DNA of 64,000 bases from a virus (IMGVR_UViG_3300032167_000010), one strand, 5' to 3'; shown: positions 22,845-52,779, numbered from the stretch's first letter. The notes: generated by a model from the letters alone, not told the origin. Translations and numbers: made by a program.

Positions 22845-23456
22845 ATGAACTTTAATGATGTATATTCTACACTAGAAACTTTATATGAAGCGAAGAGGGT
22901 AATCCATGATGCAGACATCCTTTACCACTTCACTAACCCGACACCATTCTTAAAGATCTTTAAAGAGGATTGCTTACGCGCAGACGTTCATCTAGACGCA
23001 GTTTGTCTAACCACAGATAAGGACTACCAGATCTACGGGTATCCCTGTGGCATCCAGTTTAGTCGTAGCAAATTAACCCAGGCAGGTTACGATCTAGTTC
23101 CCTTTGATGAATTCGAAGATGACCCAGAATCTAGAGGAGAATCAGAGGAGCGCATCTATGGGAACATTAATAACATGTCTAACTACGTAACTGCCGTCTA
23201 TATAAATTGGGAAAACATCTCATTAGTACAAAGTGCTGAGGGGGACAGAATAGCAGATGCTGTATATGATGAGCAAGGAAATGAAGATGAGACCTATGAC
23301 TTAATGCTAGAAGAATTCAGGTCCTTACTATCAGAACTAAAGGGTAGAGGAATTAGAGTAGTAGAGAAAGGTTACCCGGTGACCGGTGAATATTATTTAG
23401 ATACAGACGGGACTCTTCAGTATGGTCAGATGCCAGCACTTAGCACTGCGAGCTAA
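22845..23456 (+). CDS. hypothetical protein with N-terminal MNFNDVYSTLETLYEAK motif; locally GC-richer
   Basis: ORF track; SD AAAGGCGGAA; N-terminus shared with 52078 and 51302 proteins. Confidence 0.6.
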   Translation: MNFNDVYSTLETLYEAKRVIHDADILYHFTNPTPFLKIFKEDCLRADVHLDAVCLTTDKDYQIYGYPCGIQFSRSKLTQAGYDLVPFDEFEDDPESRGESEERIYGNINNMSNYVTAVYINWENISLVQSAEGDRIADAVYDEQGNEDETYDLMLEEFRSLLSELKGRGIRVVEKGYPVTGEYYLDTDGTLQYGQMPALSTAS

Positions 23457-23474
23457 TTTAGTTAATTAAATATT

Positions 23475-23510
23475 TAAAGACTCTTCTATAAAACGAGGGT
23501 CTTTTATTTT
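23475..23510 (+). terminator. rho-independent terminator
   Basis: aaagactc-ttctataaaac-gagggtcttt plus T-run. Confidence 0.55.
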
Positions 23511-23581
23511 TACTTAAACAATTAAATTTGGAATCTTGACATTGTATAATATAATATAAAAAATTATACGGAGAAATAGAT

Positions 23582-23971
23582 ATGAAATTTAATCAAGTTG
23601 AAACTACTTTTATTTGTCAGTTTAGTAAGCCAGCAAACATAGCGATGCTCGAAGGATATAAAACACGTAGAGACAAAAGTAATAAAGAACTTGCTAATTA
23701 CTATCGAGATATAGTTTGCGCTCTTGCTAATACACCGGCGTGGGGAGTATCTGGCGTTAATAAGATGATGAATGAACTTACTGCAGCAGTTAGAGCATCT
23801 CTTACTAAAGCAAAGAAAGGTAAGACTTCTGCGTATGCTCACGCAAATAAGCTTCTTACTTATGTCGCTCATTTCGGTAACGAAGATGCCAAGCCTTGCT
23901 ATAGTGGTAGATATAAGTTAGCGCCTATTCTTACGACTGAAGAATTACTTCAATTAGAAACAATGGTTTAA
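23582..23971 (+). CDS. hypothetical basic protein (129 aa)
   Basis: ORF track; SD ACGGAGAAA; upstream TTGTATAATATAAT. Confidence 0.55.
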   Translation: MKFNQVETTFICQFSKPANIAMLEGYKTRRDKSNKELANYYRDIVCALANTPAWGVSGVNKMMNELTAAVRASLTKAKKGKTSAYAHANKLLTYVAHFGNEDAKPCYSGRYKLAPILTTEELLQLETMV

Positions 23972-23980
23972 GGTATACAT

Positions 23981-24370
23981 ATGGCACCTGAATTAATCCT
24001 ATCAATAGTATCCCTAGGACTATCCACTATCACAAGTATATTAACATTAACCATAAATGCAAAGATAGGTAGACTTAATAACCTTGAGGCTGAACATAAA
24101 TACAAGAAACACATAACTAAATTTGAACTTAGCTTTAAAGATGAAGAATGGCTATTTAACCTAATGAAGTCAGATGAATTTCATAACTATGATAACAAGA
24201 GCCGACGTTTAATTCACAAGTGGTGGCGAGAATATAGTAAAACATATCTGCCTAAAAAACTAAAGGCTACGCTGCCTAATAGCCATGACTTTAGTGGTGT
24301 AATATTACGTTGCCCACCTCCTGTTGAAGTTCCTGTTGAAGACTGCTGCGATATTGATAAAGAGGATTAA
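23981..24370 (+). CDS. membrane-anchored protein
   Basis: ORF track; N-terminal TM helix; SD AAGGTATA. Confidence 0.5.
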   Translation: MAPELILSIVSLGLSTITSILTLTINAKIGRLNNLEAEHKYKKHITKFELSFKDEEWLFNLMKSDEFHNYDNKSRRLIHKWWREYSKTYLPKKLKATLPNSHDFSGVILRCPPPVEVPVEDCCDIDKED

Positions 24371-24466
24371 GGAATTAGTCTTCTTTTTTTTTATTTACAA
24401 AAATTTATTAAATTCTGAAATAAAAGATCGTATAATATAATGATAGAAATTTTATGAGGTACATTT

Positions 24467-24781
24467 ATGTATAATGTTGTAGGCTATAAAAATAAACCAG
24501 CTGTAGTAATGAGTAAGAATGATAGTGTAGCATCTGTTATGTATTTTATAGAAGAAGATAATATGATAAAAGCTGCTATAGACACTGTTTATGATAAAGC
24601 GTTGATAACCGATTACGTTTGTCCGTATGCAGATGCAACCCACCCAACCAGAATTTACTGTAGCGGCGGTAAGTGTATGTACATGATGAACTCACCGGCA
24701 GAATTAAACTATGTTTGTCTAAAATGCTTAAACGAATCTTTATTAAGCAAAGCTGCGGATGAAGGTATTATAGAGAGGTAA
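24467..24781 (+). CDS. Cys-rich hypothetical protein
   Basis: ORF track; SD TGAGGTA. Confidence 0.5.
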   Translation: MYNVVGYKNKPAVVMSKNDSVASVMYFIEEDNMIKAAIDTVYDKALITDYVCPYADATHPTRIYCSGGKCMYMMNSPAELNYVCLKCLNESLLSKAADEGIIER

Positions 24782-24784
24782 CTT

Positions 24785-24925
24785 ATGGAATTTATTTTAA
24801 CTTGTAAATCAGATACCCAAAGTGGATATGCTGTAATGACTATCTGTGGTAGTAACTTAGACCTTGCCCTCTGCGAGTATGAAGGTAGCCAAGAAGATAT
24901 TGTATCTATAGTGAGGGTATTTTAA
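24785..24925 (+). CDS. hypothetical 46-aa protein
   Basis: ORF below track cutoff; SD GAGAGGTAA 6 nt upstream. Confidence 0.35.
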   Translation: MEFILTCKSDTQSGYAVMTICGSNLDLALCEYEGSQEDIVSIVRVF

Positions 24926-24929
24926 AAGT

Positions 24930-25088
24930 ATGTTCATTAAATTCATTTTAGATAATAAAGAAGTTACTTATGAAGAACTACAGCAAGCAATGAAGAATTT
25001 AGATGCTGGATTTGGCTATAAATATTTTTTTAAATTAGACGATATTAAAAGTGATGGTACCTTAATATTTGAAAGACTAATTGTATAA
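24930..25088 (+). CDS. hypothetical 52-aa protein
   Basis: ORF below track cutoff; fills the gap, weak SD. Confidence 0.3.
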   Translation: MFIKFILDNKEVTYEELQQAMKNLDAGFGYKYFFKLDDIKSDGTLIFERLIV

Positions 25089-25108
25089 GTTATGTTGGAG
25101 GCTAATCT

Positions 25109-25420
25109 ATGGCAGAAGTTACTAGACACGGAATATATTATTCAGAAGCTAATAAATGTATTCTTTTAGATCCTATTATTGAAAACCCAGTAGACATTAG
25201 ATGTCCAGAGTGTGGTTATGCTTTTACTATTGACAAACAATACATAGATAAAGGGGAACGTAATACTAGAGCATATTGTCGTAATTGTGAGTGTGAGTTT
25301 ATTCCTGAAGAATCTGATATAATTGAAAAACAATTGTCAGATGAAGACATGTCATTAATTAGCCACCTAAAAATTATTGCCTATAAAATGGATAAAGTTA
25401 TAGAAGGACTAAATAAATAA
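25109..25420 (+). CDS. Zn-ribbon protein
   Basis: ORF track; CPECG..CRNCEC; SD TTGGAGG. Confidence 0.5.
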   Translation: MAEVTRHGIYYSEANKCILLDPIIENPVDIRCPECGYAFTIDKQYIDKGERNTRAYCRNCECEFIPEESDIIEKQLSDEDMSLISHLKIIAYKMDKVIEGLNK

Positions 25421-25424
25421 AAAC

Positions 25425-25625
25425 ATGACTAGAGAGAAAGCTTTAGAAGTAAGTAATTTACTATTTAAGATAGAAAGATATGAAGCATTAATAGAAGACA
25501 TTAGTAGTTTAAATGGATTAGAAGAACTCGCTGAAGTTTATGGGGAAACCGAACTAGAAGCCGAGCTAACAGGAGTTGTTCAGGGTAGGCTAAATAAACT
25601 GCTTAAAAAACTGAAGGAGCTGTAG
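25425..25625 (+). CDS. hypothetical coiled-coil protein
   Basis: ORF track; no clear SD. Confidence 0.4.
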   Translation: MTREKALEVSNLLFKIERYEALIEDISSLNGLEELAEVYGETELEAELTGVVQGRLNKLLKKLKEL

Positions 25626-25874
25626 ATGAATAAAGACGCGTTAGTTAGAGCAAAAGAGCTCGAACACCAAATAGATACTTATAGTAAGATAGCTTTTGCT
25701 ATGACTTTTCCATATACAAAGTTTAAGCTTTTTAAAAAGCAGGCCTATATTGGTTATGCCGGATATAATGCCCACCCTGAAATTGCAGTGTCAGATCCTG
25801 AACTAGCAAAGCTTATTGCAGACTACTGTAAGGATAAAATAAATAAACTTAATGCAAAACTAGAGGAGATGTAA
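25626..25874 (+). CDS. hypothetical protein
   Basis: ORF track; SD GAAGGAG 6 nt upstream; ATG follows upstream TAG. Confidence 0.5.
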   Translation: MNKDALVRAKELEHQIDTYSKIAFAMTFPYTKFKLFKKQAYIGYAGYNAHPEIAVSDPELAKLIADYCKDKINKLNAKLEEM

Positions 25875-25876
25875 GT

Positions 25877-26314
25877 ATGGAAGAAAAAGAAACTTTAGTA
25901 GAACAGATCGCTAAGGCAATTTGTCCTATTATTCAACCCCTTCAATGTAGGGAACTCTGTACAAATGTAGGTAATTGCCAAGAATTAAAAGAAGTATGTA
26001 GGAAAATAGTTAATGGTTTTTCTAAGCACGATACTGCGGTGGTGCTGACAAGAGAAGAATACGAAGAATATCAAGATTTACTTAAAAACTTTGATAACTA
26101 TCTTTTTGAATATAGAAAATTTGCTGATGGATGTATCAAAGATAAAGGCAAGGAAACGGCAGAGAAGATTTTATTTAAGGTTTATTCTAAACTAACTGAA
26201 CCGTCAACTTGGAAACAAATGCATACTTGGTGGCTATATAACGGAGAGTGTGAACAACTTAAAGCATTATTGAACGAAATTGCAATTAGTGAAGGCGTTG
26301 AAATAAAGGAGTAG
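25877..26314 (+). CDS. hypothetical protein (145 aa)
   Basis: ORF track; SD GGAGGAGATG. Confidence 0.55.
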   Translation: MEEKETLVEQIAKAICPIIQPLQCRELCTNVGNCQELKEVCRKIVNGFSKHDTAVVLTREEYEEYQDLLKNFDNYLFEYRKFADGCIKDKGKETAEKILFKVYSKLTEPSTWKQMHTWWLYNGECEQLKALLNEIAISEGVEIKE

Positions 26315-26317
26315 GCT

Positions 26318-26479
26318 ATGAAAACCTATAAAGCAATAGTTTCTACAATAGAAATTGTAGATGTGACCGCTGAAAGTGAGGAGCAGGCGATCGAAAGAGT
26401 TAAAGCAAGCTTACCTCCACGTACAGTGGCAGAAGTACAAATAGCACAAGAAACTAATATAGAAGAAATAAAGGAGTAA
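26318..26479 (+). CDS. hypothetical 53-aa protein (small-paralog family)
   Basis: ORF below track cutoff; SD AAAGGAGTAGG. Confidence 0.4.
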   Translation: MKTYKAIVSTIEIVDVTAESEEQAIERVKASLPPRTVAEVQIAQETNIEEIKE

Positions 26480-26483
26480 GATT

Positions 26484-26651
26484 ATGAACACTTATATAGT
26501 AACGTGGTTAGATACGCATGATAATATTATGTCTGAACAAGTAGAGGCTTACGATGTTAATGGTGCCTGCTGGTGTATTAGCTGTAGGCCGTCAGATATT
26601 ATATCGGTAATTAGAATTTATAATAAAGTACAAGAGGCGCACTATGAGTAA
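26484..26651 (+). CDS. hypothetical 55-aa protein, MNTYIVTW family
   Basis: SD AAAGGAGTAAG; same N-terminus as 27624 ORF. Confidence 0.45.
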   Translation: MNTYIVTWLDTHDNIMSEQVEAYDVNGACWCISCRPSDIISVIRIYNKVQEAHYE

Positions 26652-27624
26652 TAATCCAATTAAAGGTTTAACTGAATTATATGATGAAGCAGTTAAAAAA
26701 TCAGATGATGCCGGTTTAGCAGAAGTATATAAGCAAGCAACAGATGCAGTATTTAACGCTTTAAAGAAAGAGCTTAAAGAATACCGTAAGCTTGATATTA
26801 CTATAGAAGATGTAGAATACCTAGACGGTTATTTTATCTTTGGTATGGGAACGAACTCAGTAGTTCATTTTCACATTAAAGAAACTCCTGGTTGGAAGTA
26901 TGGCATCTGGTGGTCGCCAGTAGAAACAAAAGATTCTACAGAAGAAAATCCTAAATATGAACTTAATAAATTACATTGTAGTGTCTTCACTCAATACGAA
27001 GAAGAGATAGATAAGTTTAAACCTTCAGCATCTACGTTTGTAAAAGAGTTTACTTTCTATTTAGATAATACTTCAGGCTACGGTATGTGGGAGTTTGTCA
27101 AGACTATTAAGTTTATTCACGAGGAACCTTACCTTGCTTTTTATAGAGAGATGACATATACTGATTTTAATCACGAGCACGTTAGCCGAGCGAAAGCTAA
27201 GTCTTATTTCGAACGCCATTTTAAACAAAAGAGACTTGAAGAAGAAACCACTGCATTTAACGATAAAGAATTACTTAAGACTATCTATACTATCTTAAAA
27301 GAAGATATAGACGAAGGTACTTGTTTCGTACACGACCGTGGTGATAATTGGCATCCTAGATACGAGATCGTTATGAAGAATCCTTTTGATATAGAGGACG
27401 GCTGCTATGGATTATTTGATATACTAGAAGACGCATATGCTACCGAAGCACAAAAGCTTTGGGATGAAACAGTAAAAGATTGTGAAAAGCGAGCAGACAA
27501 AGCTGATAGCTACTGGTATAAGTGTTGTCACGATAGCTTGATATTAGTATCTGCCGATAGATTTAAAGAGTGTTCTGAAAGCGCTAATATAATAGATGTT
27601 AAGAAGTTAATGGAGGTTGACTAA
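26644..27624 (+). CDS. hypothetical protein (326 aa)
   Basis: ORF track; SD CAAGAGGCG. Confidence 0.6.
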   Translation: MSNNPIKGLTELYDEAVKKSDDAGLAEVYKQATDAVFNALKKELKEYRKLDITIEDVEYLDGYFIFGMGTNSVVHFHIKETPGWKYGIWWSPVETKDSTEENPKYELNKLHCSVFTQYEEEIDKFKPSASTFVKEFTFYLDNTSGYGMWEFVKTIKFIHEEPYLAFYREMTYTDFNHEHVSRAKAKSYFERHFKQKRLEEETTAFNDKELLKTIYTILKEDIDEGTCFVHDRGDNWHPRYEIVMKNPFDIEDGCYGLFDILEDAYATEAQKLWDETVKDCEKRADKADSYWYKCCHDSLILVSADRFKECSESANIIDVKKLMEVD

Positions 27625-27779
27625 TGAACACTTATATCGTAACTTGGTTTAATGAAGAATACGAAGAGTACAGAACTGAACAAATAGATGCCACTGATAT
27701 AGTAGAGGCTTGTTATTATGTTGGATGTAAACTAGAAAACGTGGTATCTGCGACTAGAATCTATAAGGGGAGTGATTAA
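27624..27779 (+). CDS. hypothetical 51-aa protein, MNTYIVTW family
   Basis: SD ATGGAGGTTGA; paralog of 26484 ORF. Confidence 0.45.
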   Translation: MNTYIVTWFNEEYEEYRTEQIDATDIVEACYYVGCKLENVVSATRIYKGSD

Positions 27780-27780
27780 T

Positions 27781-27930
27781 ATGTACTTATATGAAATAAA
27801 ATATAAAGATAATACGACTGAATATGTAGAAGCAACAGATGTCCAAAATGCTTGTAGTGTTGCTAATTGCAGAATGGATAATGTTGTGTCGGTAATGATA
27901 GTGCATGAAGTAGAGAAAGAGGAAAATTAG
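27781..27930 (+). CDS. hypothetical 49-aa protein, related small family
   Basis: SD AAGGGGAGTGA; shares ATDV..AC....NVVS pattern. Confidence 0.4.
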   Translation: MYLYEIKYKDNTTEYVEATDVQNACSVANCRMDNVVSVMIVHEVEKEEN

Positions 27931-27931
27931 T

Positions 27932-28111
27932 ATGGCACAAGCAACAGTATGTGATAAATGTGGTACAGTTTTAAAATACGCACCTGATACTAAGATTAAA
28001 ATTTATTATCACCCTTATGGTGATATACATTATGAGCTATGCTCTAAGTGCACGGAAGAACTAAAGAAGTGGCTTAATAGTGAAAAGCCCTGGAATAAGG
28101 AGACTAAATAA
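27932..28111 (+). CDS. Zn-ribbon small protein (59 aa)
   Basis: CDKCG..CSKC; SD GAGGAAAA. Confidence 0.45.
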   Translation: MAQATVCDKCGTVLKYAPDTKIKIYYHPYGDIHYELCSKCTEELKKWLNSEKPWNKETK

Positions 28112-28914
28112 TGAAACCGATTATTAAATGGGTGGGTGGAAAGCATGGCAATTTGGAGCATATTAGAAAGTTGTTGCCCGAAAACTATAACAGATATTAT
28201 GAACCTTTCTTAGGAGGCGGAGCAGTATTACTAGACCTTAATCCGAAAGAAGCTTACGTGAATGATATTAACTCAGAGCTAATAAATATGTATATTCAAG
28301 TAAGAGAGGATGTAGAAGTAGTAATTAGAGAGCTAGTTAAATTTGACGAGCTACATGAATCTTACGCTAACCCGAAAGTATTCTACTATGATGTTAGAAA
28401 AGATTTTAATAATAATCTTAGAAGCAATACTGCCACTCAGGCAGCAAGATTTATATACTTAAATAAACACTGTTTTAATGGTTTATACAGAGAAAACTCT
28501 AAGTGTGAGTTTAACGTGCCTTTTAATGGAAAGCTTACTGGCGGTTCTTTTGATGCCGAACATCTTAGAGAAGTATCTAAGCAGATTCATGACGTAATGT
28601 TTCTTAACGGCGACTTTGAAGACTGCGTATGTCACGCTGATAAAGGCGATCTAGTGTTCCTAGATCCCCCTTACGACAATTCTTTTACTGACTATACAGG
28701 AGCCGGCTTTGAAAGAGATGAGCAAATCAGAGTAGCTAAGAAATTTAAAGAACTATCTGATAGAGGTTGTTATTGTATGTTAACTAATCACGATACGCCG
28801 CTTATCAGAGAACTATATAAAGAATATAACTTTACCGAAGTAGACGTCCGCCGTAGTATCAATAGAAAAGGCGATAATAGAAAAGGTAAAGAAGTTATTA
28901 TTACTACTTATTAG
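28111..28914 (+). CDS. dam: DNA N6-adenine methyltransferase (Dam/D12 class)
   Basis: N-terminal KWVGGK...EPFLGGGAV (SAM motif) and catalytic DPPY; SD AAGGAGA. Confidence 0.8.
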   Translation: MKPIIKWVGGKHGNLEHIRKLLPENYNRYYEPFLGGGAVLLDLNPKEAYVNDINSELINMYIQVREDVEVVIRELVKFDELHESYANPKVFYYDVRKDFNNNLRSNTATQAARFIYLNKHCFNGLYRENSKCEFNVPFNGKLTGGSFDAEHLREVSKQIHDVMFLNGDFEDCVCHADKGDLVFLDPPYDNSFTDYTGAGFERDEQIRVAKKFKELSDRGCYCMLTNHDTPLIRELYKEYNFTEVDVRRSINRKGDNRKGKEVIITTY

Positions 28915-28922
28915 GAGTATCT

Positions 28923-29501
28923 ATGTTAAAAGTTATTTTTTGCGGGATTACTTTACTTATTGTTATTGGCATCATTGTTTTTCTTTTATGCGGTTATACA
29001 CAAAGAAAAACAATGTCAAAAGATTATGTGCTAGATTTAACTAAAAAGACTACTTATGAATCAGCTACTATCGTGGAACAGTGGGCGGCTGCCGAGGAGC
29101 GTCTTGAAAAAGAACGCACTTGGATTAACGAAGTAAAAGAACTTTGTAAACTGAACATAGTTAAGCTTAGCCGAAGACTACCGGTCGGAGTATCTAGAGT
29201 AGAACATTACAATAACATAATAGATGAAGTTTATTATAGAGCCATGAGTACTAATGCGAATTACTTTATAATCGCGTCTAATTGGCTTCCTATCTTTTCT
29301 TTTACTGCAGACTTTGAGATGACTGAAACTATGCCTATTCAAGGCTCTTATGTTGCAGGTACTTATAAAGGACTTCCTATCATTGTTTCACCTTGCTTAG
29401 GTTCCTTTGAAATGATTTGTGGAGCAGATACGCCCACGCCTGAATATAATACTGCAGCTATAGACATGAATAAGTTTATGTTTATTAAGCTCGAAGACTA
29501 A
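28923..29501 (+). CDS. membrane-anchored protein (N-terminal TM, juxtamembrane KDYVLD)
   Basis: ORF track; SD TAGGAGTA. Confidence 0.55.
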   Translation: MLKVIFCGITLLIVIGIIVFLLCGYTQRKTMSKDYVLDLTKKTTYESATIVEQWAAAEERLEKERTWINEVKELCKLNIVKLSRRLPVGVSRVEHYNNIIDEVYYRAMSTNANYFIIASNWLPIFSFTADFEMTETMPIQGSYVAGTYKGLPIIVSPCLGSFEMICGADTPTPEYNTAAIDMNKFMFIKLED

Positions 29502-29544
29502 TTAAAATAAATTACTAATAAATTAATGAAGGAGATATTTAAAT

Positions 29545-29895
29545 ATGGGTTGGTTTGATGCAGCAGCTACTTATCGTAGTGGTAAAACACCAAAGTATAA
29601 AGTAGGAGATAAAGTATATAGACTACTTGTTATTCCGCCGAAGTTTAATAAAAGAAAGCTACAGAAGTTCTGCGTGCCTTGTGAGATTATGGGAGTATCC
29701 GCAAAGAAGAGCGGCTTTATCTTTAGAGAGTTTACTTATACAGTTAAGTCCGCAGCTGGCGAAACTGTAGAAAACGTTTATGAGTCAGAACTTTATACTG
29801 AATATCAGAATGTGCCAGAAACTAAGAATCCTGATATTACTTTTAAAGAAGCAGTAGAAGAAGCTCTAGAACAAATGACAGAGGAAGCACAGTAA
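29545..29895 (+). CDS. hypothetical protein, MGW-N-terminal paralog A
   Basis: ORF track; SD GAAGGAGA; N-terminus MGWFDAAATYRSGKTPKYKVGDKVY. Confidence 0.55.
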   Translation: MGWFDAAATYRSGKTPKYKVGDKVYRLLVIPPKFNKRKLQKFCVPCEIMGVSAKKSGFIFREFTYTVKSAAGETVENVYESELYTEYQNVPETKNPDITFKEAVEEALEQMTEEAQ

Positions 29896-29898
29896 CTT

Positions 29899-30639: not shown

Positions 30640-30645
30640 CTGTGA

Positions 30646-31335: not shown

Positions 31336-31341
31336 GAAAAT

Positions 31342-31380: not shown

Positions 31381-31439
31381 TAATGCACTGTATTATATAA
31401 TATAAAACTTAAACAAATAAAAATTATAAAGGAGTATTT

Positions 31440-33045: not shown

Positions 33046-33048
33046 TCA

Positions 33049-41388: not shown

Positions 41389-41398
41389 GCTAAATTAT
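41389..41398 (+). promoter_or_regulatory. late-type promoter motif (copy 4)
   Basis: atccGCTAAATTATTAaag 46 nt upstream of GTG 41444. Confidence 0.45.
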
Positions 41399-41443
41399 TA
41401 AAGAAGACTACAAAGTCTTACTACTATTTGGAGGATATTTGTT

Positions 41444-41869
41444 GTGATTAAAAACAAAGCGACTTTTTATCTTTTATCGTTTACTTGGGGCATTGTGATG
41501 TCTATAATTGGATGCCTAGCAGCACTCGGACTTTTAATTGCTGGGCATAAACCAGAAAAGTGGGGCTATTGCTTACATTTTAGGCTTGGTAAAAATTGGG
41601 GCGGAGTTAATTTAGGTCCAGTAATTATTACTGATGTGTATTCTGGTGATTCTAGTAGTATTAAGAACCACGAGCACGGACACGCGCTTCAGAACTGTAA
41701 ATACGGACTCTTTATGATAGTAGTTAGTATTATGTCGTTTATACGTTATTGGTACAGAGAGCTTAAGTACTATAGAAAAAACTTAATTCCACCTACTGCC
41801 TACGATGACGCTTGGTATGAAGGTGAAGCTACTAAACTAGGTGATGAGTTTATGGCAGCTTTTGAGTAA
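41444..41869 (+). CDS. integral membrane protein with HExxH (HEHGH) motif
   Basis: ORF track; GTG 8 nt after GGAGGA; 3-4 TM segments. Confidence 0.5.
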   Translation: MIKNKATFYLLSFTWGIVMSIIGCLAALGLLIAGHKPEKWGYCLHFRLGKNWGGVNLGPVIITDVYSGDSSSIKNHEHGHALQNCKYGLFMIVVSIMSFIRYWYRELKYYRKNLIPPTAYDDAWYEGEATKLGDEFMAAFE

Positions 41870-44639: not shown

Positions 44640-44666
44640 ATAATATTATTTTTGGAGAAAATTTAT

Positions 44667-45017: not shown

Positions 45018-46129
45018 TGGATTATAAAGGATATAAATTATTAGATAAAATTATGTTGGTTTGCAGAGACCTTCCTTCACGCACGGACGGTTATGGTCTT
45101 AATTGTGGAGCAAAAGCGTACCAAGCATACTTTGTGGATCCTTCTAGCAAAAACCAGTTAGACTCCGCAAGAAATTGGGCGGAATGGACAGAGTTTGGAC
45201 CTTCTTATACAAATGCCGAAGGTAGGTGGACGCACGAATGGGAAATCAAACATAAGCCTGCAGAATTTACTTTTGATAATGATGGTTTTACACTTGAACT
45301 ACTAGACTGCGCAGGTGGAAGTTCTCAGGGCGGTAAACTCTCTTTTTGGAATTGTTTAGTAAATAAAGACGACAAAACTTTTAAGATTGGTATTAACTCA
45401 GAGATGTTATTAAATCTGTTAAAAGACGCAGATTTTAATAAAGGCGTTTGTCAAAGCCCACTTATTTTTATTACACAGAAAGGCAGAGTGGGCTTGACAG
45501 TTAAAGATTCTGAAACCTACAGGCAATGTATTAGCGACAGAGATCTTAAAAAGAAATTTGGCTCTGAAACTACTTCTAAGTTTGCTTTCGGCGACCTACT
45601 TAAAACAGCGACGCTTAAAGAAGTATATCTTGGAACGCTTACTCAGTATTATACTGTTGATATTGGAATAAATAGAGACCGCCGGTATCACGAGCGAATT
45701 AACTTTAAAGAGTGCACAGTTGTTAAGTTAGCAAAGCCTATTACTTACCATGTCTTTGAGAGCCTATACAGCGAGGATAAAAAATTATCTGAATTTATAG
45801 AAGGTTATAAGAAGTATCAATATTCATACCCAGACCTTAAAAAGACCTGTCCTAAAAGAGTAATTGACGGCAAAATTGATTTAGATATTACAGAAGAAGA
45901 CTTTTATAATGAAGTAATAGATAAAGCATATAACTTCGAACTTTATAAGAAATTATACATTGATAGCTATGTTTCTTATGGTAATAAAGCACCTGCTATT
46001 GACGAAGATGTAGTTTTATACTATTTCTTAGGGTCTAGAATATTTGGTCTTGGAAAAGAACCTTTTGAACTTCCTGAAGATATTATGAGCAGACTTAAAG
46101 CTGCCGGTATAAAATACGTGGAGGAGTAG
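45017..46129 (+). CDS. hypothetical protein (370 aa)
   Basis: ORF track; ATGA-type overlap. Confidence 0.6.
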   Translation: MDYKGYKLLDKIMLVCRDLPSRTDGYGLNCGAKAYQAYFVDPSSKNQLDSARNWAEWTEFGPSYTNAEGRWTHEWEIKHKPAEFTFDNDGFTLELLDCAGGSSQGGKLSFWNCLVNKDDKTFKIGINSEMLLNLLKDADFNKGVCQSPLIFITQKGRVGLTVKDSETYRQCISDRDLKKKFGSETTSKFAFGDLLKTATLKEVYLGTLTQYYTVDIGINRDRRYHERINFKECTVVKLAKPITYHVFESLYSEDKKLSEFIEGYKKYQYSYPDLKKTCPKRVIDGKIDLDITEEDFYNEVIDKAYNFELYKKLYIDSYVSYGNKAPAIDEDVVLYYFLGSRIFGLGKEPFELPEDIMSRLKAAGIKYVEE

Positions 46130-46133
46130 ACCT

Positions 46134-46313
46134 ATGAAATATATTGTAGATATGGATGCTTTTGCAGACTGCTTAGAATGCTTACATGGTATGGTAATTA
46201 ATGGTAAAGATTATGTTTCTATTGAAATGGTAAAGGCATTTATTGAAAGATTTCCAAAAGATCCGGTAGTCCTACAAGCTGAGACTAATACTGAGCTAGA
46301 ACAAGCAGAATAA
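46134..46313 (+). CDS. hypothetical 59-aa protein
   Basis: ORF below track cutoff; SD GTGGAGGAG 8 nt upstream. Confidence 0.45.
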   Translation: MKYIVDMDAFADCLECLHGMVINGKDYVSIEMVKAFIERFPKDPVVLQAETNTELEQAE

Positions 46314-46435
46314 TCCAGATTTAAACGTTTTAGGCTAAGATGTATAAATTATTTATTATAGTATAAAGTGTCTTAAAACGCGAATTTGGGCTCCAAAATA
46401 CCTGTTAAAAACTAAATAAAATAATTAAAAAATTC

Positions 46436-46456
46436 TATTGATTATTGTATAATATA
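46436..46456 (+). promoter_or_regulatory. middle-class extended -10 promoter (attaTTGTATAATATAT)
   Basis: TGTATAAT core; sits before the 46490 gene in the longest non-coding gap. Confidence 0.4.
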
Positions 46457-46489
46457 TCAGTAGAATTTTTATTTTTGGGGTGTATAAAA

Positions 46490-46759
46490 ATGACGAGATA
46501 TAATATTTACTATTCACAATATAGTATTACGGCGCGGAAGTATATTTCATATATTAAAGTGATACATACCGAGGATGTTTATCACGAAATTGGCTGGATG
46601 ATTTGTAATGCACTTGAACATATCGATAAAATTAGATATACTCGACCGAGAGCGAGTGAAGAAGCTTGTGAGCAGTTTTGGATTGATAGTGGCTATATAA
46701 AAATTTCAGACAACCTTTGGATGCTTGAAAAGAAATCTGATGAAGACGATGATAAATAG
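46490..46759 (+). CDS. hypothetical protein
   Basis: ORF track 46445..46759; ATG after GGGGTG. Confidence 0.5.
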   Translation: MTRYNIYYSQYSITARKYISYIKVIHTEDVYHEIGWMICNALEHIDKIRYTRPRASEEACEQFWIDSGYIKISDNLWMLEKKSDEDDDK

Positions 46760-46772
46760 GAGGAATGTAAAA

Positions 46773-47126
46773 ATGACATTTATAGAAGAACTTAAACAAC
46801 TTTCTGAATCTGTGGCACTACGCCATAAGCTTGAAAGACAATTAAATGAAATTAAAGCTAAGATGAAAACTGCGGCGAGTAATGGTTATAGGGGTTTTAA
46901 AATTGACATTATTACGTTATTAGACTCAAGAGCTAGTATTATACGTTTACCAGATATTAATGCTGAAAATTATTACTGTATTTTTACTAATAATGAAACT
47001 TTTTACATTGATGCTATTAGCAGCTTCTTAGCTGAACTTGGATTTAATACTTCTGAAATTGCTTATGTTAAACGTAGCAATATTACGGACGGCTACAACT
47101 CAATGCTTATTACTATACTTTGGTAG
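46773..47126 (+). CDS. hypothetical protein
   Basis: ORF track 46725..47126; ATG after TAGGAGGAATG. Confidence 0.5.
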   Translation: MTFIEELKQLSESVALRHKLERQLNEIKAKMKTAASNGYRGFKIDIITLLDSRASIIRLPDINAENYYCIFTNNETFYIDAISSFLAELGFNTSEIAYVKRSNITDGYNSMLITILW

Positions 47127-47136
47127 GAGGATAACT

Positions 47137-47943
47137 ATGGAAAGAGACGCAGCTATTATGGAAAGAGTAAGACAGCATTTTGCTGAAGCTCTTAAATATT
47201 TTCCAGAAGATAGAATTGTTGGTGTATTTTTACAAGGAAGCCAAAATTACGGATTAGATTTACCAACGTCGGACGTAGATACTAAGCTAATTGTAGTACC
47301 GACTTTTCACAATATTGCTTTAAACAGTAAGCCTGTTAGCACCACGCACGTCAGAGCAAACGACGAACATATTGATTTTAAAGATATTCGTCTTTATATG
47401 GAAACTTTTAGGAAACAGAATTTAAACTTCCTTGAGATTTTATTTACGGACTACTATATCATCAATCCGCTTTACGAAGAACAATGGAATAGACTAGTAA
47501 AAGCTCGTGAAGAAATTGCGCGTATGAATCCTTATCGTGCGGTAAAATCTATGAAGGGTATTGCTCTAGAAAAATTTCATGCAATGGAGCATCCCTATCC
47601 AACGAAGCTTGACTTAATCGAAAAATATGGTTTTGATGGAAAACAGGTACACCACCTTATCAGAGTTGCCGACTATCTTACTAGATATATAAATGGTGAA
47701 TCTTACGCAGGCTGTTTAAAACCAAGTAAGCATTTAGTAGAACATATGTTAGAATATAAACGTCACGAAATCGACCTTGAAACGGCAAGAAAAGAAGCGA
47801 AATTAGTATTAGACTTTACAACTAAGATAGCCGATGATTTTTGCTCGACTCACAAAGATGAAGAAGACTCAATGATGCGAGAGCTGCTTCAAGACGTGTC
47901 ATATAATATTATGAAAATTGCAACATTAAAAGAACTTACATGA
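47137..47943 (+). CDS. Pol-beta-superfamily nucleotidyltransferase (RlaP-like)
   Basis: GSQNYGLDLPTSDVDTKLIVVP (GS..YG....SD.D) plus downstream NLNFLEILFT; ATG after GGTAGGAGGAT. Confidence 0.6.
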   Translation: MERDAAIMERVRQHFAEALKYFPEDRIVGVFLQGSQNYGLDLPTSDVDTKLIVVPTFHNIALNSKPVSTTHVRANDEHIDFKDIRLYMETFRKQNLNFLEILFTDYYIINPLYEEQWNRLVKAREEIARMNPYRAVKSMKGIALEKFHAMEHPYPTKLDLIEKYGFDGKQVHHLIRVADYLTRYINGESYAGCLKPSKHLVEHMLEYKRHEIDLETARKEAKLVLDFTTKIADDFCSTHKDEEDSMMRELLQDVSYNIMKIATLKELT

Positions 47944-47956
47944 GGAGATAGGAATA

Positions 47957-48265
47957 ATGAAAGTAATAAATTTGAAACGCGGTCAGGGAAAGACTACAAG
48001 ACTTTTATATGCAAGTGAATTCGATGAAATACCTATATTATGTGAAACGCGAGAAACTAAAAAATTTTTACTTGATACTGCATTTCAGCTTGGACTAACC
48101 ATACCAGAGCCTATCACTGTAAATGATTTAATTTCTAATAAATCAACAATGCACTATTCGGACATTCTCATAGACGAAGCTCCGCATGTGTTGCAGTGCT
48201 TATTAAGGAATTTAGGCGTAGTTGACGATATAAGAGCTATCACATTAACATCTGATAAAATATAA
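47957..48265 (+). CDS. mini P-loop NTPase (102 aa) with Walker A and B
   Basis: KRGQGKTT and DILIDEA; SD TGAGGAGATAGG. Confidence 0.5.
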   Translation: MKVINLKRGQGKTTRLLYASEFDEIPILCETRETKKFLLDTAFQLGLTIPEPITVNDLISNKSTMHYSDILIDEAPHVLQCLLRNLGVVDDIRAITLTSDKI

Positions 48266-48303
48266 CTTATTAAGCATGGTATAACTTACCGTGCTCTTTT
48301 CTT

Positions 48304-49068
48304 TTGAATCCCTGGCCGATTTACTGTATATTAAATAGAAAGGTCGGTGATACATGTTTGAAACGAAACATAGAGTTAATAGTAAAACTAATATTACTTA
48401 GCATTTTAATTCTTTTGCTTCTTTTTATTAACCACAAAAGTAATAAGGCTGAAACAATGACCAGCCAAAAGTCCGCTATAGCTCCAAAAGCTAGTTATAC
48501 TTTAAAAATACCTGAAAATACTTTACCTGAAGATAGCTCAGCCTTAGTGGAGTCTGATACTACAGAACCGGTTGTAGAACAGCCTATTATCGAAGCTGTA
48601 GAAAAATCAGACCCTTATAAAACATGGGAAGAAGAATATTTTTATGCAGCTAACGTTTATAAGTATTTCATGCAAAGAGGCTTTACTAAAGAAGCAACGG
48701 CTGGTATAATTGGAAACATGATGATAGAAACTTCTGGAGGTTCGTTAGACCTTAAACCGAATATTTATAGTAAAAGTGGAAATTACTACGGGCTTTGTCA
48801 GTGGTCTAAAAAGTATTATCCAGAAGCACATGGGCTTTCTTTTAAACGGCAATTAAACTATTTATTTAAAACAATGCCTGCAGAATTTAAAACTTTTGGG
48901 TGGTTATATAAAGACGGTTTTAATTTTAAAGACTTTACTAAAATGACTAATGTTAAAGAAGCGGCTATTGCTTTTACTAAAGTATATGAACGTTGTAGCC
49001 CAGTTAGCTACAAACAACGTCAACAGGCTGCATTAAAAGCATACAACTATTTTAAAGCACTCAAATAA
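48304..49068 (+). CDS. membrane-anchored lysozyme-like / lytic-transglycosylase-like peptidoglycan hydrolase (start uncertain)
   Basis: hydrophobic anchor VKLILLSILILLLLFI; domain IGNMMIETSGGS...GNYYGLCQWS resembles the ES..GxxGLMQ SLT-type signature; alternative TTG start at 48358. Confidence 0.45.
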   Translation: MNPWPIYCILNRKVGDTCLKRNIELIVKLILLSILILLLLFINHKSNKAETMTSQKSAIAPKASYTLKIPENTLPEDSSALVESDTTEPVVEQPIIEAVEKSDPYKTWEEEYFYAANVYKYFMQRGFTKEATAGIIGNMMIETSGGSLDLKPNIYSKSGNYYGLCQWSKKYYPEAHGLSFKRQLNYLFKTMPAEFKTFGWLYKDGFNFKDFTKMTNVKEAAIAFTKVYERCSPVSYKQRQQAALKAYNYFKALK

Positions 49069-49082
49069 TGGGTGCTTTTATT
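49053..49082 (+). terminator. rho-independent terminator
   Basis: aaagcactc-aaataat-gggtgcttt + T-run, overlapping the stop codon. Confidence 0.55.
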
Positions 49083-49123
49083 GTATAATATTATATATAA
49101 AATAACTAGGAGTTTTTATTATA

Positions 49124-49675
49124 ATGGTATATAAAACAGAACAAGAACGTATTGCTGAATTTATAGAGGAAGCCTCAAAGTATAGTACTTTGAATATTTC
49201 AAAAGAGTTTATGGATTGGTTAAAAGAACAAGGCTTCTTTACTAAACCTGCAGCAATTAAACATCATGGAAACTATGAAGGTGGTTTATTTGATCACAGT
49301 TTAGCAGTTGCTCAAAGTTTACTTACTATGACGGGAGCTTTAAATCTTAAGTGGCAAAACCCACGTTCACCTTTTGTAGTTGGTATGTTCCACGACCTCT
49401 GTAAATTGGATGACTATGCAATAAAACAAGAAGATTCTGGTAAATTCTTTTGGTACAATAATGATAAAATTCTTAATGGTCACGGGGATAAGTCACTTAT
49501 AATGTTATCTCAGTTTTTAAAGCTGACGGAAGAAGAAATCTTATGTATTAGATATCACATGGGAGCTTATCAAACTGATGACTGGGATTCTTATGATAAA
49601 GCAATTAGAAAATATGAAACAGTTCTTTGGACTCATACTGCCGATATGTATGCTTCTAAGATTTTAAATATTTAA
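49124..49675 (+). CDS. HD-domain phosphohydrolase
   Basis: H..G..H then FHDLCKLDD (HD signature); SD CTAGGAGTTT; upstream TTGTATAATAT. Confidence 0.7.
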   Translation: MVYKTEQERIAEFIEEASKYSTLNISKEFMDWLKEQGFFTKPAAIKHHGNYEGGLFDHSLAVAQSLLTMTGALNLKWQNPRSPFVVGMFHDLCKLDDYAIKQEDSGKFFWYNNDKILNGHGDKSLIMLSQFLKLTEEEILCIRYHMGAYQTDDWDSYDKAIRKYETVLWTHTADMYASKILNI

Positions 49676-49689
49676 TGAGGGAAATTTTT

Positions 49690-50103
49690 ATGTATATTAA
49701 TAAAATTAATAAAGATTCTGCTTGGATAGTCTATGAAACTTTTGAAAATAATGAACATAGTTTTAAAGCACAATGTCCACATTGTGGGTATACTTATGAG
49801 ATAGCTTGTTCTATGGATCTAGAGAGTTATGAATACACTACTGAACCGCTTAAAGAAGGTTGTCCGCTTTGTCTTAAAAGTATGAGAAAGACTAAAGAAA
49901 CGCCTTTTATTGTTGGATCTGGCATTGGACGTAATCTTTTAGATGAACTCCCACCTAAAACTTTGAGTATTGACTGTGATACCATTATTCTTAACCAAAG
50001 AAGTCTTGATATTTCTTTTAAACTAGAAAGAGTAAATTTAGAAAAGTTTGATAACTTAACTATCAATGGATTTACTTTTGTGAGGGAGAAAACAGATGAA
50101 TAA
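49690..50103 (+). CDS. Zn-binding hypothetical protein
   Basis: ORF track 49675..50103; CPHCG..CPLC; ATG after GAGGGAAA. Confidence 0.5.
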   Translation: MYINKINKDSAWIVYETFENNEHSFKAQCPHCGYTYEIACSMDLESYEYTTEPLKEGCPLCLKSMRKTKETPFIVGSGIGRNLLDELPPKTLSIDCDTIILNQRSLDISFKLERVNLEKFDNLTINGFTFVREKTDE

Positions 50104-50479
50104 TTTCTTTGTAATTTTACTTATGATTTTCTGTCATATTTTAGATGATTATGGCCTACAAGTACCTTGCTTATGTAATTTAAAACAAAGGAAATTTTGG
50201 AAAGAGAAAGCGCCGGAAAAGATGTATAAATAAGATTATATCTGGGCCCTAATTATGCACTCATTTAGTTGGGCTTTTATGATCATGCTTCCAATCGCGG
50301 CAGTAATGAAATTTGAAGTTGATATTTTATTTGGAATTATTTTTGGAATAAACGTAGTATTACACGCAATAATAGATAATGAGAAAGCAAATAAATTTCA
50401 TATTAATCTTTGGGTTGATCAATTATTACATATAGTACAAATACTTGGAACTGCTTTTATTTTATTAGGTACATATTAA
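50096..50479 (+). pseudogene. small integral membrane protein gene interrupted by in-frame TAA at 50231-50233
   Basis: 45-aa ORF (SD GAGGGAGAAAA) and track ORF 50255..50479 are in the same frame with one stop between; downstream part has no SD. Confidence 0.4.
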
Positions 50480-50868
50480 TGAAAAGAAAATCAATATCAA
50501 AAAAGATGCGTGAGGCTGTTTATAATAAGTATGACGGCCATTGTGCTTATTGTGGAAAAAAGTTAGAACCAAAAGGCTGGCAGTTAGACCACCTAATTCC
50601 GTATCAAAGAGAACGATTTGGTAGGTATACAGAAGGGCAGATTGAATGCTTTGAAAACTATATGCCGGCATGTAGGCGTTGTAACCACTATAAGAGAGCA
50701 CATTCATTAGAAGTATTTAGAGAAATGATTGGAGAGATTCCTAAGAAACTTTATCGAGATAATTACATATATAAAGTCGGACTTGATTACGATCTAATCG
50801 AATCAAAAGAACATATGATTAGATTTTATTTTGAATTAAGTGAAGAAGAAAGAAAAGCGAGGAATTAA
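50479..50868 (+). CDS. HNH endonuclease
   Basis: CAYCG..DHLIPY..N..CRRCNHYK HNH signature; ATGA overlap. Confidence 0.75.
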   Translation: MKRKSISKKMREAVYNKYDGHCAYCGKKLEPKGWQLDHLIPYQRERFGRYTEGQIECFENYMPACRRCNHYKRAHSLEVFREMIGEIPKKLYRDNYIYKVGLDYDLIESKEHMIRFYFELSEEERKARN

Positions 50869-50869
50869 T

Positions 50870-51232
50870 ATGTTTTTTAATAAAAAGAAATCTACTAGCT
50901 CTTGTTCGGAAATTACAGTAAACGGTAAAACTATTAGAGTTAGGGGTAATAACATTACAGTAGTCAATGATAAAATAATTGTTGACGGTATAGTCCTTGA
51001 TGAATCTATGGATTTTAAAAATATTACCGTGATTGTTGAAGGCGACTGTAATAAGCTAGATGCTTGTGGAGATGTTGAAATAAAAGGTAGCTGCGGTTCT
51101 GTCGACTGTAGCGGCAGCTGTCATATTGAAGGTAATGTACATGGAGACGTTGACGCTAGTGGATCTGTAACTTGTGGAGATGTTGCTGGGAATATCGATG
51201 CTAGTGGCAGTGTTAGATGTACAAAAAGATAA
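50870..51232 (+). CDS. beta-helix-like repeat protein (bactofilin-like GxV/GxI repeats)
   Basis: ORF track 50840..51232; ATG after GCGAGGAATTAAT; repeats GDVDASGSV.CGDVAGNIDASGSV. Confidence 0.45.
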   Translation: MFFNKKKSTSSCSEITVNGKTIRVRGNNITVVNDKIIVDGIVLDESMDFKNITVIVEGDCNKLDACGDVEIKGSCGSVDCSGSCHIEGNVHGDVDASGSVTCGDVAGNIDASGSVRCTKR

Positions 51233-51257
51233 TTTGATAATTTAATAAAAATTAACT

Positions 51258-51267
51258 GCTAAATTAT
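51258..51267 (+). promoter_or_regulatory. late-type promoter motif (copy 5)
   Basis: taactGCTAAATTATTTgta 35 nt upstream of ATG 51302. Confidence 0.5.
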
Positions 51268-51301
51268 TTGTAAGAAAAAGCTCAGTGAGGAGTTTATAAA
51301 T

Positions 51302-52042
51302 ATGAATAATTTATGGAGCACGTTTTTAGAGCTAGACGCTTTATATGAAGACGTTTATGACTTTAAATCTACGAATAAAAACAATTGGATATCTATGCAA
51401 CCAAAAGCTAATGTTCAACAACCAATTGCTCAATCACAACCTATTACTAAACCTGCTATTACAAGTCCTAATGGTAAGTGTGTCGTAGTTATTGTCTCAG
51501 ATAAAGGCAGACTTAGAGCTTTTGGTACTGATGGGGTTAATCCAGGAGCTTTTGTAGCTTTTCCAAATAATTTAAGACAATTCGAAGGCCAAAAATACGA
51601 AGTTGACCAATTAATTTGGAATGGAAAAAACTATAGAGTATCTGGTAATATTAAAGAAATTAAACCAGTACCATTAACAACAACGCCTACTTCGCAATCA
51701 GCAAGCTCAGTTAATACTCAAAATAATAGTCAAAGTACTACTAGTATTGATATACCAGCTATTTTAAAAGCTTGGCTAAGTTTTATGAATGACGTGGGTT
51801 TACCTGGTGATACTTGGTATGATTATGACTTAGGAGACGATGATAAAGTTCCTTTAATTTTATCTGACTCAGATTTATTGAATGATTTAGCAGCTAAAAT
51901 TGAAATAGCTTTAAAAAACGAGGGTTTATTTGATATCTTCAGTACTTCTGATCCCGCTGAGGCACTGGATGACGATAATGATAAGGCGCTAGAAATAATT
52001 TCTTGTATTGCTGATGAAATTGTAGAACTCTTAGAGTTATAA
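51302..52042 (+). CDS. hypothetical protein with N-terminal MNNLWSTFLELDALYED motif
   Basis: ORF track; SD GTGAGGAGTT; acidic C-terminus. Confidence 0.6.
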   Translation: MNNLWSTFLELDALYEDVYDFKSTNKNNWISMQPKANVQQPIAQSQPITKPAITSPNGKCVVVIVSDKGRLRAFGTDGVNPGAFVAFPNNLRQFEGQKYEVDQLIWNGKNYRVSGNIKEIKPVPLTTTPTSQSASSVNTQNNSQSTTSIDIPAILKAWLSFMNDVGLPGDTWYDYDLGDDDKVPLILSDSDLLNDLAAKIEIALKNEGLFDIFSTSDPAEALDDDNDKALEIISCIADEIVELLEL

Positions 52043-52077
52043 AGATAAATAAAAATTAATAAGGAGACTTATAAAAA

Positions 52078-52779
52078 ATGAATTTTAATAGTGTTTTTGA
52101 AGAACTTAGCAGTCTTTATGAAGAAAAGGTTGTAGAAGAAGTTAAACCTACAGAAGAAGAACTTAAAGTGGAAGAGCGCTGCTCAAATGAAGCTGAGCCT
52201 TGCGAAGAAGCTTGTGCTAAAAAATTAGAAGAGGCTACCAATGAAGAAGAAACTGAAACTGTTAATGACGAAGCTCCAGTAGAAGAAGTTTCTGAAGAAG
52301 AACCCGCAGGTGAAATTGAATTTGCAGAAGAACCTGTTGAACCTATTGCTAGACAGCTAATTCTTGAATGCTCTAAATGCGGTGCAATTATAATCAAAGA
52401 TGAAGCTGACGTAGTTATTGATGAAGAATCTGATTTAGTAAATATCGAAGAAGAGTGTCCATTCTGTGAAGAAACAGAAGGCTACAAGATTATTGGTGTT
52501 GTTGCTCCATATGAAGCAATTGAAGAAGACTCTGTAGAAGTATCCGAAGAACTTGAACCTGTAGAAGCTAATGATAATGCAGATTTAAATGAGTATTATG
52601 ACGCTGAAGCTCCTCTTGGAAGAGACACGCCTTATTATACTAATAGCGCTAAATCTTGGGGAGACCCAGTCCCACAATGGTGGTTAGACCAAGGCGGTAC
52701 TCGAGCAAGCTGGAATGCACGAAATACTTCTAGTGGTCGCAAATGGGATGAAGAAACCGGCGGAAAGGATAGATATTAA
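52078..52779 (+). CDS. highly acidic Glu-rich protein with N-terminal MNFNSVFEELSSLYEEK motif and two CxxC pairs
   Basis: ORF track; SD AAGGAGACTTAT. Confidence 0.6.
   Translation: MNFNSVFEELSSLYEEKVVEEVKPTEEELKVEERCSNEAEPCEEACAKKLEEATNEEETETVNDEAPVEEVSEEEPAGEIEFAEEPVEPIARQLILECSKCGAIIIKDEADVVIDEESDLVNIEEECPFCEETEGYKIIGVVAPYEAIEEDSVEVSEELEPVEANDNADLNEYYDAEAPLGRDTPYYTNSAKSWGDPVPQWWLDQGGTRASWNARNTSSGRKWDEETGGKDRY

Follow-up and report, generated by a model that had tools for sequence, protein, structure and literature searches.

The DNA considered here is a stretch of 64,000 nucleotides (nt) of the virus IMGVR_UViG_3300032167_000010 (hereafter the window). It is part of a ~222-kb genome of an uncultured phage (contig ERZ27248446 k141_1405776, 221,766 bp) that recurs in at least 24 metagenome assemblies. 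The window has a GC content of 34%, and almost all of its genes lie on one strand. Three of its open reading frames (ORFs), named here after their first nucleotide, encode proteins that begin with the same short peptide, called the tag, and differ in what follows. The tag ends in L-x-E, and we lean, with no great assurance, towards regarding it as a propeptide that would load these proteins into the phage head, be removed at the L-x-E and mark injected effectors. The three genes and their tags are as follows, a slash standing here and below for a putative cleavage site.

22845-23456, + strand: ORF 22845, 203 residues; tag, then a body with a predicted ADP-ribosyltransferase (ART) fold
51302-52042, + strand: ORF 51302, 246 residues; tag, disordered linker, small beta-barrel, linker and helical C-terminal domain
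52078-52779, + strand: ORF 52078, 233 residues; tag, Glu-rich region, zinc ribbon and W/G-rich C-terminal tail
22845..22889, + strand: tag of ORF 22845, MNFNDVYSTLETLYE, residues 1-15; putative cleavage after E15, LYE/AKR
51302..51349, + strand: tag of ORF 51302, MNNLWSTFLELDALYE, residues 1-16, with one extra residue after M1; putative cleavage LYE/DVYDF
52078..52122, + strand: tag of ORF 52078, MNFNSVFEELSSLYE, residues 1-15; putative cleavage LYE/EK

The tag comprises ~15 residues with the consensus MN-F..[FY]..L..LYE, and the family consensus is MNxFxxFxELDxLYE. Translation of the window in all six frames yields three instances of h-x-x-L-x-x-L-Y-E, one at the N-terminus of each of these proteins. 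A position-specific scoring matrix (PSSM) was built on 143 homologous N-termini and used to score 485 Met-starts (ORFs of at least 40 residues). The three carriers reached 35.3, 30.5 and 29.0 bits, and the next best start 4.1 bits; the common N-terminal motif noticed in the original prediction thus separates these ORFs (29-35 bits) from the 482 others (at most 4). As a cross-family control, matrices were made from one family alone (leave-one-family-out). With the ART family only, ORF 52078 scored 19.9 bits and ORF 51302 16.8 bits, the next ORF having 5.4; with the beta-barrel family only, ORF 52078 scored 23.9 bits and ORF 22845 6.5 bits, which is still rank 2 of 485. The most conserved positions of the profile are F at 3/4 and F/Y at 7, which can be compared with Y4 and F7 of phage T4. 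Past residue 17, the bodies have no detectable similarity in pairwise BLASTP (E ≥ 0.29), just as had been predicted; residues 1-19 give the only significant local match between the proteins (E 3.6e-4), and the folds predicted for the bodies by AlphaFold2 (AF2) differ from one another. In the AF2 models the tag is a separate helix of lower confidence, linked to the body by coil, and the LxE lies in coil outside the folded domains; in ORF 22845 this helix spans residues 3-11, has predicted local distance difference test (pLDDT) scores in the 60s and is detached from the body. The common tag on the three ORFs is real and far beyond chance, and exactly three carriers are present in the 83 kb of the genome that were read (window −8.9 kb to +72 kb).

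The DNA encoding the tags is identical at only 24-28 of 45 nt (53-62%), and the upstream regions align at a 10-base promoter box only. A DNA repeat or a recent recombination was rejected on these grounds as the cause of the common N-terminus, and conservation therefore acts at the protein level. A looser fourth member, ORF 10023 (NFSTLSQEELKE), had also been proposed; it scores −6.2 bits (rank 18 of 485) and has been dropped. ORF 12735 (12735-13139, starting MNYNDTIKDLTAWLEDL) ranks fourth of 485 with only 4-5 bits and is probably a chance look-alike, because it has no late-type box and sits inside an early operon. Leaders of the double-glycine bacteriocin type have a pattern like ..F..L...EL.., which the tag superficially resembles, and an export leader of this type, or of the type VII secretion system (T7SS)/LXG type, was considered. 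Such a function is hardly conceivable: the tag has neither Gly-Gly nor a hydrophobic core, no transporter or C39 peptidase is encoded nearby, and the proteins are large enzymes of cytoplasmic type.

When the motif was sought in other phages, it was found on more than 200 homologues, in which the tag is kept and the downstream domains are exchanged. A pattern scan of IMG/VR gave true matches only in this clade, the rest, including L014, being chance. The corresponding scan of metagenomes gave about 15 true loci among the matches listed (at least 120), and a motif profile run against 1.84 billion representatives gave 12 matches at E ≤ 1e-3, of which 9 were true, all of them long two-tag fusions. 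No relative of the ART family was found in the GTDB representative bacterial genomes, and a literature search with the motif strings gave nothing relevant. Eighty of the 88 homologues of ORF 22845 begin with the tag; the other 8 comprise truncated sequences, sequences with mis-called starts and bearers of the variant MKL[YHF]EEFxLYE... The 126 homologues of ORF 51302 share mainly the very conserved beta-barrel of ~65 residues, and the tag stands at the start of 113 of 120 among the matches listed. Between tag and barrel the inserts vary: an NYNF domain, a zinc ribbon, ART-PolyVal (P0149, Pfam E 2e-20) and others. ORF 52078 has tag-bearing orthologues in every relative examined. Several tiny paralogous ORFs at window 26318-27930 (MKTYKAIV.., MNTYIVTW.. 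twice, and MYLYEIKY..) resemble a ~60-residue domain that lies between tag and ART body in P0054, P0056 and P0078.

The beta-barrel gene and the acidic zinc-ribbon gene, each tagged, form a pair that occupies the same slot in most relatives examined, behind an HNH gene and ahead of a T4 gp1-type deoxynucleoside monophosphate (dNMP) kinase and the tail-fibre block. Other relatives have filled this cargo slot with other tag-bearing proteins: L021 with one of 325 residues and a divergently transcribed coiled coil of 334, L042 with one of 337 residues and a double zinc ribbon of 139, and L133 with one of 807 residues. Further carriers are a 764-residue NUDIX protein in L034, behind the same promoter box, and a 251-residue protein beside the ART in L036; judged by eye, the first gene of the L036 operon (351 residues, MANNFRFLYENLF..) may have a variant tag. 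In the window the HNH endonuclease gene (50479-51232) is directly upstream of the slot, likewise in most relatives examined, and in both the window and L004 a 120-residue ORF stands between the HNH gene and the slot; that of the window is bactofilin-like (Pfam E 2e-4, under the curated cut-off). In several lineages the gene pair is fused into one ORF of 460-999 residues (999 in P0211), whose linker is the former intergenic Shine-Dalgarno sequence plus ATG; this 'NINKENxxM' linker recurs in P0117, P0158, P0174, P0193 and P0210-P0220. As the fused ORFs keep the internal Shine-Dalgarno sequence and ATG, the second tag can still be made as a true N-terminus.

The border in front of the modules is conserved as well. 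Among 45 unique 8-mers preceding the invariant Arg of the ART family, P3 is L in 39, I in 5 and V in 1, P1 is E in all 45, and P1′ is A in 29, S in 11 and T in 5, giving [LIV]xE/[AST]xR throughout. The invariant Arg itself lies anywhere from residue 18 to 102, and the LxE context holds regardless; the homologues with an extra domain (P0054, P0056, P0057 and P0078) have one LxE after the N-terminal helix and a second directly before the ART body. In the beta-barrel family, 68 of 70 unique contexts read LxE/GIFDxKP....WVSASG or LVE/WVSASG, and this border is kept after a zinc ribbon, an ART-PolyVal region or the tag alike. The end of the tag in ORF 51302, LYE/DVYDFKSTNKNNWISM, aligns with the internal LxE/GIFD..W[VI]S junction of its longer homologues. 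Junctions of the form E-[GDSA]-[IVL]-[FY]-[DGNK] have a hydrophobic P3 in 64 of 66 unique cases, and LxE/GIFD recurs 1-3 times inside the fused proteins. The acidic family of ORF 52078 has a second candidate site, C-x-K-x-L-[TE]-E/[AD], in all orthologues read (by eye, with no formal count), for example CSKTLTE/DA, CKEELTE/AA, CKEALTE/AA and NKLEE/AT. In the window it is located as follows.

52225..52233, + strand: candidate second processing site in ORF 52078, C-A-K-K-L-E-E/A-T, P1 = E52

It could be asked whether the LxE is cut at all. The tag might be a helix that docks the proteins on a partner other than the capsid (tail or baseplate, a phage chaperone or a host target), with an LxE that is structural and stays uncleaved. 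The cargo cassette immediately precedes the tail-fibre block, the beta-barrel shows the extreme conservation expected of a structural contact, no protease was found in the 83 kb, and LxEAxR includes an invariant Arg that possibly belongs to the enzyme. Nevertheless, docking of this kind appears unlikely. The LxE stands at the borders of three unrelated families and is repeated in long fusions in varied contexts; fold constraints hardly explain this recurrence. AF2 places the residues in low-confidence coil, and a hydrophobic-x-Glu at the module borders of unrelated families is likelier to be a processing site.

If the LxE is cut, the cut could be made outside the head, by a dedicated phage or host glutamyl endopeptidase that processes polyproteins in the producing cell or after delivery. 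This would suit the 460-999-residue fusions with their several LxE/GIFD junctions and the homologue with ART-PolyVal, and proteolytic release of modules has been proposed for polyvalent proteins (PMC5512222). Such head-independent processing is quite improbable: no peptidase domain was detected in any carrier scanned, the short proteins of the window are single-module and yet keep the tag, and x-E with a hydrophobic P3 is a documented signature of prohead proteases.

What kinds of protein carry the tag? According to its model, the body of ORF 22845 is a Tpt1/DarT-like ADP-ribosyltransferase fold (residues ~18-200, nt 22896-23444) with the core that binds nicotinamide adenine dinucleotide (NAD). 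No sequence-profile match was found for this ORF; the invariants of its family include R18, Y27-H28-x-T30, R45, S73-R74 and E99-S-E-E-R103, to be set against the catalytic R-H-R-R tetrad of Tpt1 and the H/Y/E type of DarT. The atypical composition attributed to this gene turned out to be modest, with a GC content of 0.413 vs 0.356 ± 0.026 for ORFs of at least 100 residues. The beta-barrel of ORF 51302 (residues 56-120, nt 51467-51661) is modelled with pLDDT ~95, and a structure search with it gave no significant match. ORF 52078 contains 68 Asp plus Glu residues, has an isoelectric point (pI) of 4.05 and carries a CxxC...CxxC zinc ribbon at residues 98-132 (nt 52369-52473). With potentially toxic NAD-using enzymes among the carriers, a short N-terminal linear motif such as the tag might be a degron or an autoinhibitory peptide that keeps them short-lived or inactive in the producing cell. 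The same tag on non-enzymatic acidic or coiled-coil proteins makes this very improbable, and it would leave both the internal LxE junctions and the co-regulation with structural genes unexplained.

The co-regulation is suggested by a 10-base box, GCTAAATTAT, of which the window has 8 copies vs 0.68 expected. Seven of the 8 are intergenic, lie 30-60 nt ahead of a start codon and often come right after a terminator hairpin; behind them are ORF 10023, ORF 22217, ORF 22845, the membrane protein gene 41444, the 51302-52078 operon, the tail-fibre operon and a giant gene with leucine-rich repeats (LRR). We infer that the box is a late-type promoter element. The elements around the tagged genes and the structural genes are listed below.

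22761..22790, + strand: terminator-like hairpin (13-bp stem, then T run) ending the preceding unit, right before the box of the ART gene
22797..22806, + strand: GCTAAATTAT box, putative late promoter element, 48 nt upstream of ORF 22845
51258..51267, + strand: GCTAAATTAT box of the two-gene cargo operon, 44 nt upstream of ORF 51302
52061..52066, + strand: Shine-Dalgarno sequence AAGGAG of ORF 52078, kept with the ATG inside fused ORFs of relatives
52826..52866, + strand: terminator-like hairpin (17-bp stem) closing the 51302-52078 operon
54744..54753, + strand: GCTAAATTAT box before the tail-fibre operon (54834 onwards), whose ORFs are tail-fibre or collagen-like
62325..62334, + strand: GCTAAATTAT box before the 2813-residue LRR giant structural gene

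The box is conserved ahead of the same genes in relatives with only ~55-60% protein identity, and its conserved part is only the 10 bases. In L034 it lies 37 nt upstream of the orthologous ART gene, and it is kept before the cargo cassette in L007, L010, L012, L015, L020 and L021. A late motif had been placed before every member; ORFs 22845 and 51302 do have the box, whereas ORF 52078, the second gene of the 51302 operon, follows a 35-nt spacer with a Shine-Dalgarno sequence only and has no box of its own.

Several other features of the window concern the box. The copy at 57242-57251 lies within the collagen-like tail-fibre ORF 56111-57787; it is conserved in relatives, where it encodes AQ[IL]FAKLL, and may either drive ORF 57800 from within the gene or have arisen by coincidence from conservation of the protein. 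Two single-gene units behind late boxes (22164-22741 and 9985-10562) encode acidic proteins of 174 and 179 residues that lack the tag and belong to no assigned family. A 141-residue membrane protein with a GTG start (41389-41869), also behind a late box, is a holin candidate, and a Phage_lysozyme2 'tail lysozyme' is encoded at 48457-49068, a few kb ahead of the cargo slot; like the tagged genes, late lysis genes thus seem to be spread over the 'early' half. The LRR giant (2813 residues with LRR_5 repeats, behind a late box) runs from window 62368-64000 on into L003 12490-20931. The giant gene in the corresponding position of the relative L004 shows no similarity to its N-terminal 411 residues, and the LRR protein is probably a hypervariable receptor-binding protein for this reason. 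The giant gene as such is not conserved between relatives. For the protein encoded behind it, the IMG/VR and JGI contigs searched contain no relative, and a word-index protein search with the partial ORF that ends L003 gave no match. The surroundings of the other carriers are early-region or tail-fibre contexts only.

How might such a tag be used? In T4, propeptides of 10-19 residues send unrelated internal proteins (IPs) to the scaffolding core, chiefly by means of residues 4 and 7, and the protease gp21 processes after L/I-x-E (PMC9026906). T4 ipII and ipIII begin MKTYQEFIAE/A and ipI begins MKTFKEF...ITE/A. With Asp at P1, T4 propeptides still target but are no longer processed. The ART Alt of T4 is packaged in the head, cleaved by gp21 and injected, and the IP repertoire is hypervariable, only the capsid-targeting sequence (CTS) being conserved (PMC9026906, PMC3012670, PMC8442874, PMC5512222). 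The present system resembles the T4 CTS in several respects. In both, a short N-terminal peptide (15-16 residues here) stands on unrelated proteins of one phage; its aromatics are at 4 and 7 (here 3/4 and 7), and a small residue comes after its terminal [L/I]-x-E. Diverse carriers fill hypervariable slots, and one of them is of ADP-ribosyltransferase fold like Alt; in view of this fold, Alt is a better T4 analogue of ORF 22845 than IPI, which had been named. In both phages the genes are scattered among non-structural genes and yet have a late-type promoter. The T4 ipI gene adjoins genes 57, 1 (dNMP kinase) and 3, and the cargo slot likewise has a gp1-type dNMP kinase and tail genes as its neighbours. 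In the window this kinase has 27% identity to its T4 counterpart (pairwise E 2e-8). The nearest T4-like start is MKLYEEF.. in P0042, identical at 5 of 7 positions, though these peptides are too short for homology to be established; variant starts of the family are MKLYEEFNLYE.. and MKLFEEFKEYE...

On this model, the tagged proteins would be made late. With its aromatic or hydrophobic residues at 3/4, 7, 10 and 13/14, the tag, as an acidic amphipathic helix, would dock the new protein on the scaffolding core or the inner surface of the assembling prohead, and a prohead protease of T4 gp21 type would cut after [LIV]-x-Glu at its end and further at LxE junctions between modules. The predicted mature N-termini are AKRVIHDADILYHFTNPTPFLK for ORF 22845 (A16), DVYDF for ORF 51302 (D17) and EK for ORF 52078 (E16). 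The mature proteins would then be free within the head and be ejected with the DNA at the next infection. We consider this head-loading propeptide somewhat probable. The comparative evidence fits the capsid-targeting propeptide with LxE site of the original prediction, the rejected fourth member apart.

Several observations weigh against this reading or set the system apart from T4. A prohead protease gene was to be expected elsewhere in the genome, and no such gene, nor any for a capsid, portal or scaffold, was found in the 83 kb. A search of INPHARED (megablast, tblastn) gave no cultured relative beyond a 31% tail-protein match in Faecalibacterium phage FP_Brigit. The resemblance to the T4 CTS is one of pattern, with no demonstrable homology between the sequences, and the consensus here is longer and acidic. 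All three cargo proteins are acidic (pI 4.0-4.3), whereas the T4 IPs are basic, and modules here are also linked by the extended LxE/GIFD junction and occur in long fusions. In 28 beta-family N-termini the tag reads ..ELDEAYN, with the LxE at residues 10-12, so that E15 is not invariant; and the LxE-A-x-R, invariant in the ART family, might instead belong to the enzyme itself, perhaps as an arm that is flexible and bears a catalytic Arg.

Other systems offer partial parallels to the head-loading propeptide. In the giant phages phiKZ (gp175), 201phi2-1 and SPN3US (gp245), many inner-body and ejection proteins are cut after a minimal x-E, often at several redundant sites in one protein (papers on the subject include PMC5694885, PMC7411985 and PMC10052503). 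These giant phages resemble the present one in their jumbo genomes and, on the head-loading reading, in head-internal and ejected proteins cut C-terminal to Glu. They differ in P3, which is S/A/G for their proteases (S/A/G-x-E, A-x-E) and L/I/V here, as in T4; a common N-terminal targeting helix is not known for them, and the window showed no genes of chimallivirus type. Packaging in the head and injection have been predicted for polyvalent proteins and MuF-toxin fusions (Iyer et al. 2017; PMC5512222). Like them, tagged proteins can combine effector modules, in what is presumably a late-gene context, and P0149 contains ART-PolyVal itself. The relatives P0149 (ART-PolyVal plus beta-barrel) and P0211 (999 residues) are multi-module, and the window proteins have one or two modules; unlike polyvalent proteins, they have a dedicated N-terminal tag, and they have neither a MuF or portal anchor nor an embedded peptidase. 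A parallel in mode of working only is offered by the encapsulation peptides of bacterial microcompartments and by the peptides that load cargo into encapsulins, short terminal amphipathic helices on a flexible linker that route unrelated enzymes into a shell. They differ from the tag in that they are not removed and serve cellular organelles; microcompartments have shells of another kind, and encapsulins have the HK97 fold, but their peptides are C-terminal.

Some observations on relatives and on the wider genome may be added. In the divergent relative L036 (Logan SRR24653867_2541, 1-13311, especially 7576-10627), which has a tagged ART, TGA stands for Trp: no ORF ends in TGA, and homologues have W where 15 in-frame TGA codons occur. 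Within its late-box tag operon, 9 of 13 Trp codons are TGA vs 6 of 30 elsewhere (p = 0.004); late genes of recoded phages are reported to have such a preference (bioRxiv 10.1101/2021.08.26.457843). The phage of the window uses the standard genetic code. About 4.1-6.8 kb upstream of the window start (L158 2082-4800), an anaerobic ribonucleotide reductase NrdD and its activase are encoded, which points to a strictly anaerobic host and is consistent with the weak FP_Brigit tail match. The relatives L161 (330-1349) and L160 (279-1448, 18202-18489) encode a Gad1-family (anti-Gabija) protein, a T4-type RNA ligase 1 and a T4_Y16D-family protein; together with the gp1-type kinase, they hint at T4-like gene content in the lineage.

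A wider form of the head-loading reading can be put forward tentatively, and we rather doubt it: the tag plus LxE(/GIFD) might be a clade-wide cargo code that defines all injected proteins, the hypervariable slot being refilled and the polyproteins cut in the head. Many of the modules concerned would act in NAD/ADP-ribose chemistry (Tpt1/DarT-like ART, ART-PolyVal, NUDIX), and the lineage would be one of ~220-kb phages infecting anaerobes. Were this code real, the tag would predict first-minute counter-defence effectors and be a transferable loading signal with which such phages could be engineered.

If the tag is a head-loading propeptide, the proteins injected along with the DNA by this lineage of large uncultured phages could be read off from N-termini alone, a class that in T4 includes the anti-restriction IPI and the RNA-polymerase-modifying Alt. 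The candidate effectors are the Tpt1/DarT-like ART, ART-PolyVal and NUDIX proteins, the acidic zinc-ribbon protein and the conserved beta-barrel, and those among them without a family assignment are therefore testable leads for host-takeover or anti-defence activity. The design of T4, with aromatics at 4 and 7 and then L-x-E, would be used far beyond the Straboviridae, and the tag would provide a 15-residue handle to package foreign proteins into phages of anaerobic gut and rumen bacteria.

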